NCBI RefSeq assembly: GCF_003334785.1
Contig: NZ_QOWV01000006.1
Source: Escherichia coli
GTDB taxonomy: Bacteria; Pseudomonadota; Gammaproteobacteria; Enterobacterales; Enterobacteriaceae
Direction: 5' to 3' (one strand)
DNA: 64,000 nt
Positions 3,922 to 6,144 of this stretch are shown piece after piece (position 1 is the stretch's first letter; every line of letters begins with the position of its first letter). Both the position numbers and the translations under genes were made by a program. Under the pieces are notes generated by a model, which did not search any database, was not told the DNA's origin, and was given only the letters and a program-made list of their open reading frames with translations.

Positions 3922-6144
3922 TTAGTCCTCGTTTACAACCTTCTGCTGGGCGGCTTTTTTGGCCTGAGCGCGGGCAATAGCCGCGGCAACTGCCGCTTTG
4001 CGCGGATCAACCTGTTCTTCTGGTACCGCATTAGCCTGTTGCTGTTCCAGCTTGCGTGCTTTGGCGCGTGCAATAGCCGCTTCGACGGCAGCTTTGCGCG
4101 GATCAACCTGTTCTTCTGGCTCCGCATTAGCCGGTTGCTGTTCCCGTTTGCGCGCTTTGGCTCGGGCAATAGCGGCTTCGACGGCGGCTTTGCGCGGATC
4201 GACCTGTTGTTCTGGCTCGGCATTAGCCTGTTGCTGTTCCAGCTTGCGTGCTTTGGCACGGGCAATAGCGGCTTCGACGGCGGCTTTGCGCGGATCGACC
4301 TGTTCTTCTGGTTCCGCATTAGCCTGTTGCTGTTCCAGCTTGCGCGCTTTGGCACGGGCAATAGCGGCTTCGACGGCGGCTTTGCGCGGATCGACCTGTT
4401 GTTCTGGTTCCGCATTAGCCTGTTGCTGTTCCAGCTTGCGCGCTTTGGCGCGGGCGATAGCTGCTTCAACGGCAGTTTTACGTGGATCAGCAACGGTTGC
4501 TGCGTCGTTAGTTTGCTGCAGTTCTGCCTGTTTCGCTCTGGCTTGCGCTTTACGGGCTTCCCGTGCTGCAATAATTGCACTGTTATCCGGGCGTTCGCCC
4601 GCTTTAATCACAATAGGCTGTGTAGCCTGGGCCTGTTTCTCTTTCACCCGCGCCAGAGCGGCAGCAATCGCATCTTTATCTTTGGCTGCAGGTTGAACGG
4701 CTGCGCTCTTATGTCGTTCAAGGCGAGCCGCTTTTTCGCGCTCCAGACGAGCCTGGCGCGCTTCGAAACGCGCTTTGGCTTCTGCGGCGCGCTTTTCTTC
4801 CTGACGAATAGCCGCAATTTCAGCTTTTTCCTGACGGAAATATTGCACCAGGGGAATATTGCTCGGGCAAACCCACGCGCAAGCCCCACATTCAATGCAA
4901 TCAGCAATGTTATGCGTGGTAGCTTTATCGTGTTGCTGACCTTTGCTGAACCAGTACAACTGTTGCGGCAAAAGATCCGCAGGGCAGGCGTCAGCACAGG
5001 CGCTACACCGGATGCAGCTTTGTTCTTCCTGTGGTTCGCCAAGTTCATTGGCAGAGGGAGCCAACAGACAGTTGGTAATCTTTACGACCGGGACATCCAG
5101 CCATGGCAAGGTAAAGCCCATTAGCGGGCCACCCATAATCACCATTTGATCGGCAGAGGGGCAGAATCCGGCATCATTCAATAAATGACGCACTGGCGTC
5201 CCCAGCCGTGCCCAGACGTTGCCCGGGCGAGCGATTGCTTCGCCAGTCAGGGTTACAACACGCTCGGTAATCGGCTCGCCATCAATAACGGCACGTTTCA
5301 CTGCATAAGCAGTGCCGACGTTTTGCATTAATACGCCGATATCGGATGAACGCCCGCCATGTGGAACCTGCTTCCCGGTCAGAATGTAGGTTAATTGTTT
5401 AGCACCGCCAGAAGGATATTTGGTTGGAATCACCCGCAGAGAAATATCGTTAGAGTCCGCCAGCACCGCGCGCAGCATGGAAATCGCCTGCGGTTTGTTA
5501 TCTTCAATGCCGATAAGAATTTCGCGTGGCTGCAGAATATGCGCAAGAATGCGAATACCCTCTACGACCTGAGCCGCGCAATCCTGCATCAAACGGTCAT
5601 CGGCGGTAATGTACGGCTCGCACTCAGCCGCGTTGATAATCAACGTTTCAATCTTATCTCCGCCACCCTGCAATTTAACGCCTGTCGGGAATCCTGCACC
5701 GCCCAGCCCGGCAACACCAAACTGATGTATGCGCTCGATTAACTCTTCGCGACTGCGAGTGCGATAATCGGCCCAGCCGTCGCGCGGGATCCAGCAGTCT
5801 TCACCATCGGCATCAATAATCACGCTTAATTCAGCTAAAGCTGAAGGATGAGCCGTAGAGTGGGGCGCAATAGCCGTAACGGTACCCGAGGTGGGCGCGT
5901 GAACAGGCAGCATTTTGCCGCGACCACGGGTAAGCGGCTGGCCGCGCAATACTTTATCGCCGACGCTAACGCACAACTCACCTTCAGCGCCAATATGCTG
6001 TTTCAGTGGAATAACAAAACGCTGCGCCAGGGGTACCTGGCGCAGGGGTGTACCGTTGGACTGGGTTTTCATCTCCGGTGGATGGATGCCGCCGTTGAAA
6101 TCCCAGATTTTATTTTTTCTGAATGCAGAGAATAACTTAAGCAT
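3922..6144 (-). CDS. rsxC: Rnf/Rsx complex subunit C (NADH-binding, 2x[4Fe-4S]) with repetitive C-terminal tail
   Basis: 740-aa ORF; ferredoxin-type motifs [12 protein letters not shown] and [12 protein letters not shown]; C-terminus has tandem [32 protein letters not shown] units. Confidence 0.95.
3990..4500. repeat. In-frame tandem repeat array inside rsxC (about 5-6 copies, period about 96 bp, encoding 32-aa units)
   Basis: Directly visible periodicity in the nucleotide sequence and the translated protein; boundaries approximate. Confidence 0.85.

Follow-up and report, generated by a model that had tools for sequence, protein, structure and literature searches.

A tandem array of 96-bp units lies within the rsxC gene of the 64,000-nucleotide stretch of Escherichia coli DNA analysed here (contig NZ_QOWV01000006.1, assembly GCF_003334785.1), hereafter called the window. 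Taken as a whole, the array is best explained as the in-frame rsxC variable-number tandem repeat (VNTR) that is already used in E. coli and Shigella typing under the name ms11, and we hold this identification with high confidence. RsxC is subunit C of the RsxABCDGE (Rnf-type) electron transport complex, and each unit encodes 32 amino acids of its C-terminal tail.

The array, the marker ms11 and copy number

According to Tandem Repeats Finder, the array occupies 3968–4489 with a period of 96, 5.4 copies, 91% matches, 0% indels and a score of 813, and it is the sole tandem array in the window with a score of at least 60. The 96-nt spacing was also recovered by a separate repeat search (plus strand). 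The array is in frame with the minus-strand open reading frame (ORF) 3922..6144, which encodes 740 amino acids, and in the protein register its limits are 3925–4488; the span of 3990–4500 given by an earlier reading of the sequence (the initial annotation) was about right. Five complete units (residues 553–712; 4009..4488, minus strand) are found at 4393–4488, 4297–4392, 4201–4296, 4105–4200 and 4009–4104. A sixth copy, truncated and diverged (28 amino acids, residues 713–740; 3925..4008, minus strand), ends the protein and forms the C-terminal cap in every allele inspected. In pairwise comparison, 82–92 of the 96 nucleotides are identical between the five units, which makes them similar and not near-identical: the initial annotation was correct in counting 5–6 units of 96 bp but overstated their likeness.

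The units have the consensus DPRK(A/T), 13 residues, (L/R)EQQ(Q/P)ANA(E/V)PE(E/Q)QV. In each, a basic 18-residue core (net charge of roughly +3 to +4) precedes an acidic, proline-containing linker of 14 residues (−2 to −3). The tail segment formed by the units and the cap (residues 553–740) contains 29% Ala, 13% Gln, 12% Glu, 10% Lys and 10% Arg, in keeping with its first description as rich in Ala, Lys and Gln. The placing of the 32-residue units in the C-terminal tail of RsxC, also proposed initially, agrees with the ORF, the Pfam domains, the RefSeq annotation and the NCBIfam equivalog for RsxC, NF003454 (868.2 bits, cut-off 345). The ORF also matches TIGR01945 (596.8 bits, cut-off 245.95), and its product is the RefSeq allele WP_000915778.1.

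The published ms11 primers (PMC8215070, PMC4644529, PMC11773471) each have an exact single match in the window: the forward primer GAAACAGGCCCAGGCTACAC at 4620..4639 (minus strand), and the reverse primer CTGGCGCTGGTTATGGGTAT at 3874..3893 (plus strand), within rsxD. They delimit an amplicon of 766 bp (3874–4639). With the 96-bp unit and the 286-bp offset of ms11 (PMC8215070, PMC4644529), (766−286)/96 gives allele 5. Published alleles range from about 4.5 to 7, overlapping the counts found here (PMC8215070, PMC11773471, PMC4644529), and the locus has been written as ‘ms11 (rsxC)’ (PMC11773471). In primers, unit length and gene there is no difference between ms11 and the array of the window: they are the same locus. 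The marker reportedly stems from the Shigella/E. coli multilocus VNTR analysis (MLVA) panel of Gorgé et al. 2008, said to be in J Clin Microbiol 46:1026, and has reportedly been in typing use since that year. Two points were absent from the initial annotation: that the array is this published marker, and that it is old and selected, not just a product of recent slippage. VNTRs in ftsK and tolA resemble the one in rsxC, as they vary in frame and lie in flexible or helical, charged low-complexity linkers of essential or housekeeping genes. Known as CVN001 (ftsK) and CVN004 (tolA), they are likewise intragenic MLVA loci of E. coli (gene assignments from PMC11773471); they belong to other genes and have other unit lengths and peptides, and the likeness is drawn from the table of that paper and general knowledge.

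The locus is present in 5,425 of 5,426 complete E. coli genomes. For copy number, the two 600-nt flanks served as the query without the array between them, and their span was read in 59 usable complete genomes evenly spaced over the ranking of those with the locus. Five full units are the mode (27 genomes), followed by four (17), six (7) and seven (5), and zero, two and three full units are found in one genome each. The expectation that copy number differs between strains is thus borne out by the comparison of rsxC alleles. The Simpson diversity of the full-unit counts is 0.685, against a published ms11 diversity of 0.681 (PMC8215070). Annotated rsxC coding sequences measure 1935, 2031, 2127, 2223, 2319, 2322 or 2421 nt, and the proteins 580, 644, 676, 708, 740, 772, 773 or 806 amino acids, every one of them in frame. 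Some units have 33 amino acids through one additional Gln. All 11 distinct alleles that were read are in frame and keep the C-terminal cap intact.

Looking at alleles separately, L002 equals the window allele without exactly unit 2, plus one synonymous single-nucleotide polymorphism (SNP), and the other 1656 nt of rsxC show no differences. Also, L003 equals L005 without two internal units, and either four or five units are found in genomes which share 100% identical 1.2-kb flanks. As read from the aligned alleles, these whole-unit changes are those left when units in register undergo unequal recombination or slippage, the two processes named at the outset. Copy number is partly bound to lineage: all five seven-unit alleles belong to a single flank-identity class (97.9%), and six of the seven six-unit alleles have 98.3–99.2% flank identity, O157:H7 genomes among them. 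A non-frameshift rsxC deletion is listed, without its position, in the table of mutations selected by olaquindox in E. coli ATCC 25922 (PMC7696260); it may or may not be a loss of units in the array.

The allele with no full unit (strain 1105; L010, NZ_CP023388.1, 457–2199) joins the first unit cleanly to the cap and encodes an in-frame protein of 580 amino acids with a single motif copy and a normal C-terminus. RefSeq/PGAP treats it as a pseudogene (‘missing C-terminus’). Either the allele is genuine and minimal, or the array collapsed during assembly. Another irregularity concerns rsxD: the window has a run of seven C at 3648–3654, whereas ETEC1734 has six (L012, 2680–3737) and its rsxD is annotated as frameshifted. 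The spans of three further genomes (H95, H107 and H100) are also one base short. These one-base deficits are probably homopolymer sequencing errors.

Selection on the repeated peptide and its distribution

Comparison of the five units with one another separates the core from the linker. For the 18 codons of the core, the proportion of synonymous differences (pS) is 0.354 and that of nonsynonymous differences (pN) is 0.010 (pN/pS about 0.03); for the 14 codons of the linker, pS is 0.186 and pN is 0.054. Since the peptide is kept through differences at about 30% of synonymous sites, the array is better read as old and selected than as the outcome of recent slippage only. On the evidence of these substitutions, it is old as DNA and held constant as protein, most strictly in the core, as expected under strong purifying selection. 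This pattern bears directly on the view that the tail is a neutral low-complexity spacer, in which slippage makes and deletes units and only the maintenance of the frame matters: a core pN/pS of this order despite about 35% synonymous divergence between units speaks against it.

When the tail alone was searched against 1.84 billion representative proteins, 134 matches were obtained. The motif-bearing matches of at least 300 amino acids all contain the RnfC core, except two fragments (P0046 and P0089), the former of which resembles part of an RnfC tail with a frameshift. Three clearly unrelated low-complexity matches among the 134 do not contain the motif. In the protein matches the common core alternates with linkers which are wholly different between lineages, with periods of 27 to about 60 amino acids. 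A DNA-pattern scan for AAIARAKA[K/R]K, with one genome per species, found at least 120 stretches. Among the matches listed, to which the counts, charges and identities below also refer, 120 of 120 adjoin the rnfC core and/or rnfD. They come from Enterobacterales, Vibrionales, Pasteurellales, Alteromonadales and Aeromonadales, together with two metagenome-assembled genomes (MAGs) of Methylotenera. The motif is restricted to RnfC/RsxC tails, and no other protein was found with it in these searches.

Motif copies per locus were counted with a small hidden Markov model built from the cores: arrays have 1–13 copies with periods of about 25–55 amino acids. The mean charge is +4.2 for the core and −3.8 for the linker, whose mean falls below zero in 102 of 104 loci. 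Compared between loci, the core has an identity of 0.78 and the linker one of 0.30, where the core figure is inflated by the requirement for one exact core per locus. The largest array seen is that of Pseudoalteromonas citrea DSM 8771 (L044, 1283–2830), with 13 copies and a period of 47 amino acids; the locus is incomplete on the 5′ side and the protein is estimated at about 1,095 amino acids.

Concerning Erwinia amylovora, a variable 40-amino-acid repeat with 0–5 copies has been described in RsxC and used as a typing marker (PMC10587187). It shares with E. coli the gene, the position in the tail, the 18-residue core, the in-frame variation and the use in typing. The units differ in length and linker: 40 amino acids with the Ala/Pro-rich linker AAQAAPAAADKAAPVQQPAAEQ in Erwinia, and 32 amino acids with another linker of 14 residues in E. 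coli. The two arrays have been homogenised separately in each lineage.

Set against this distribution, the neutral spacer appears unlikely. It would accommodate the range of 0 to 7 full units among healthy isolates, structure predictions without a fixed tertiary structure, and the fully active clostridial Rnf, which is tail-less (solved structures end at about residue 435–443). It does not explain why 10–18 residues of core are kept across several gammaproteobacterial orders beside linkers that cannot be aligned (a contrast subject to the ascertainment of the scan), why the motif is found in RnfC tails only, or why the sign of the linker charge is kept in nearly all loci.

Structure and possible role of the tail

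The catalytic core of RsxC (residues 1–445; 4810..6144, minus strand) comprises an RnfC_N barrel-sandwich domain, an FMN/NADH-binding domain, SLBB and a ferredoxin domain with two [4Fe-4S] clusters, as seen from Pfam and solved RnfC chains. The Pfam matches are RnfC_N (residues 14–115), Complex1_51K (NuoF-like FMN domain, 139–283), SLBB (296–344) and Fer4 (two-cluster ferredoxin, 373–430). All of them lie within residues 14–430, and no Pfam family was found in the tail. The cluster cysteines C377, C380, C383, C387, C416, C419, C422 and C426 are invariant in the RnfC/RsxC alignment. Concerning the surrounding genes, the order in RefSeq around an identical copy is rsxA-rsxB-rsxC-rsxD-rsxG-rsxE-nth, with which the ORFs flanking rsxC in the window agree; rsxD (2863..3921, minus strand; ORF and RefSeq annotation) starts one base past the rsxC stop codon, an operon context.

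The solved RnfC chains 8ahx_C, 7zc6_C and 9eri_C align with RsxC and reach only residue 443–498, so that the repeats have no structural counterpart. The first of these, which aligns to residues 15–498, is the 496-amino-acid chain of Azotobacter vinelandii (PDB 8AHX). Its elongated C-terminal helix is in contact with both RnfB and RnfH, and the role of this helix is described as unknown (PMC12174285). That helix is homologous to the proximal RsxC tail, and the alignment ends before the repeated modules.

From a single sequence, AlphaFold2 predicts a long proximal helix (residues 433–507; 4624..4848, minus strand) with a predicted local distance difference test (pLDDT) of about 96 over its first 40 residues, two more helices and, in each unit, a single helix of about 24 residues. 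This helix per unit agrees with the initial description of a helical repeat. The predicted tail has low-confidence breaks at the ‘AEPEEQV’ linkers and no tertiary packing (predicted template modelling score 0.26). The collapsed 580-amino-acid allele modelled with 23 homologues gives the same picture, with tail helices at pLDDT of about 50–80. No usable docking position of the tail was obtained from the models of the tail alone or of the 580-amino-acid allele with its homologues. For Erwinia RsxC, a solenoid or toroid repeat structure has been suggested (PMC10587187), in which the repeats would pack together into a defined fold; the separate helices seen here are a prediction and leave room for such packing. 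Upstream of the array there are two more conserved elements: an old degenerate copy of the core motif (residues 489–506; 4627..4680, minus strand), equivalent to ‘ALARVKAK’ in other RnfC tails, and a ‘PDNS..I..R.ARK’ segment between the proximal helix and the array (residues 519–541; 4522..4590, minus strand), which distant RnfC tails also contain. Rather than being uniformly of low complexity, the tail is built in an ordered way.

Each 96-bp unit corresponds to one module of the tail, namely a basic, Ala-rich helix of about 18–24 residues and a short acidic linker. Whole units are gained or lost by unequal recombination or replication slippage in register, and selection retains only in-frame products with an unchanged core peptide. 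As whole units change in frame and the core is kept, strains differ in the number of identical helices on the cytoplasmic, NADH-side subunit of Rsx. The strict alternation of basic helix and acidic linker, confined to RnfC, suggests electrostatic multivalent docking. The sequence (D)(P)(K/R)KAAV(A/E)AAIARAKA(K/R)K may be a dedicated, RnfC-specific helical motif, carried 1–13 times on acidic linkers in Gammaproteobacteria for multivalent docking, with a copy number that tunes the electron hand-off of Rsx/Rnf; we consider this a plausible proposal that falls somewhat short of probable. More tentatively still, the tail may be a flexible series of basic helices on which an acidic partner docks multivalently, on the RnfB side. 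Such a partner would belong to the Rnf complex itself, close to RnfB, or would be soluble, as an electron carrier or a client protein; RnfB, an RnfH-like protein and three acidic clients (ferredoxin, flavodoxin and SoxR) are the candidates. The Rsx complex of E. coli is thought to re-reduce SoxR (PMC12174285). Copy number would tune reach and avidity and would not switch the enzyme on or off.

Several points weigh against a sequence-specific function. One natural E. coli allele (strain 1105) retains only one copy of the collapsed array, several species have a single copy and clostridial RnfC has no tail, from which it follows that multiple copies are not essential to Rnf catalysis. The conservation of the core is overstated by a scan that demanded an exact core. 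Also, literature searches on the RnfC/RsxC tail yielded nothing beyond the typing study of Erwinia and what is noted about the helix of A. vinelandii, with no experiment on the tail and no paper on its function. None of this touches the identity, polymorphism or coding status of the array, for which no contradicting evidence was found.

The same alternation of charges, with cores of about +4 and linkers of about −4, could also be that of a blocky polyampholyte, in which basic helices pair with the acidic linkers of neighbouring complexes and cluster Rsx/Rnf in the membrane, the number of units setting the valency. The charges lie all round the helix and the hydrophobic moment is 0.19–0.25, which fits electrostatic and not hydrophobic contacts. 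The exact conservation of the Ala, Ile and Val residues of the core goes beyond what a charge pattern would need, and we regard clustering of this kind as rather improbable. An amphipathic membrane-targeting helix was considered as well and is unlikely: with so low a hydrophobic moment, and Lys and Arg spread round the whole helical wheel, the helix is not a membrane anchor.

Assembly, reading frames and meaning of the array

That the copy number in the window reflects an array collapsed or expanded in the source assembly is highly improbable. The array (about 520 nt) does exceed the length of short reads, and drafts of other species do break within rnfC arrays. Yet many independent complete genomes contain the same 1101 nt at 100% identity, K-12 MG1655 (H62) has an equal array span with 100% identical flanks, unit-specific SNPs permit unambiguous assembly, and the 740-amino-acid protein of the source is an allele that RefSeq already lists.

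In several drafts, the array is split between two contigs, one carrying the core and the initial motif copies and the other rnfD and the final ones, mostly at contig ends. These are Pluralibacter gergoviae, Pseudoalteromonas sp. SMS1, a Psychromonas MAG, Pasteurella bettyae and an Enterobacteriaceae MAG (locus pairs L073/L074, L052/L053, L026/L027, L099/L100 and L103/L104). In the complete genome of Enterobacter cloacae DSM 26481 (L031, about 4450–4540), the frame changes by one base just upstream of a five-copy array, which is then no longer read in frame with the rsxC core, and the protein would end at about residue 555; the same is seen in the MAG locus L069. The change in Enterobacter cloacae may be a mistake in the sequence or may truly shorten the protein. 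Short-read assemblies break or collapse at such arrays, which can also lead annotation pipelines to call an intact rsxC a pseudogene.

The initial annotation listed two long plus-strand ORFs over the array and took them for artefacts. Both are present exactly as given, 3817..5124 (435 amino acids) and 3998..4696 (232 amino acids, with a TTG start inside a unit), and both are by-products and not genes. Neither is annotated in the identical copy in RefSeq. No NCBIfam match was found for these two ORFs or for a third by-product, the out-of-frame ORF 3933..4580 on the same strand as rsxC (minus, 215 amino acids). The antisense stop-free length increases by 32 codons per unit across the other alleles. 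In the unique part of the overlap (4501–5124), 47 of 55 substitutions among six alleles fall at third positions of rsxC, and pN/pS is 0.03 for the rsxC sense frame, 2.45 for the frame of ORF 3817..5124 and 0.15 for that of ORF 3998..4696. The last value is expected because the third codon positions of this ORF coincide with those of rsxC, and it is still five times the sense value. Real antisense genes were rejected on these grounds, and an RNA element because no Rfam match was found in the array region.

Intragenic repeat arrays can act as switches and the frame of ORF 3998..4696 does have a low pN/pS, but a phase-variable contingency locus or a true overlapping gene on the plus strand can be given next to no credence: the unit is 96 nt (32 codons) and every observed length change is a multiple of 3 (96 nt, or 99 nt with the extra Gln codon), so that nothing is switched off in any of the alleles read, the frame of ORF 3817..5124 has a pN/pS of 2.45, the antisense stop-free length follows the number of units, and no family match, annotation or Rfam match was found. 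Long antisense ORFs from such arrays should stay unannotated.

As a marker, nothing is changed by this array, ms11 being long established. The feature is a VNTR which was already known, and the conserved motif of the RnfC tail is the only part of it that might repay further work. A peptide that is identical through about 30% synonymous divergence and common to several orders suggests an interaction surface on the Rnf/Rsx complex.

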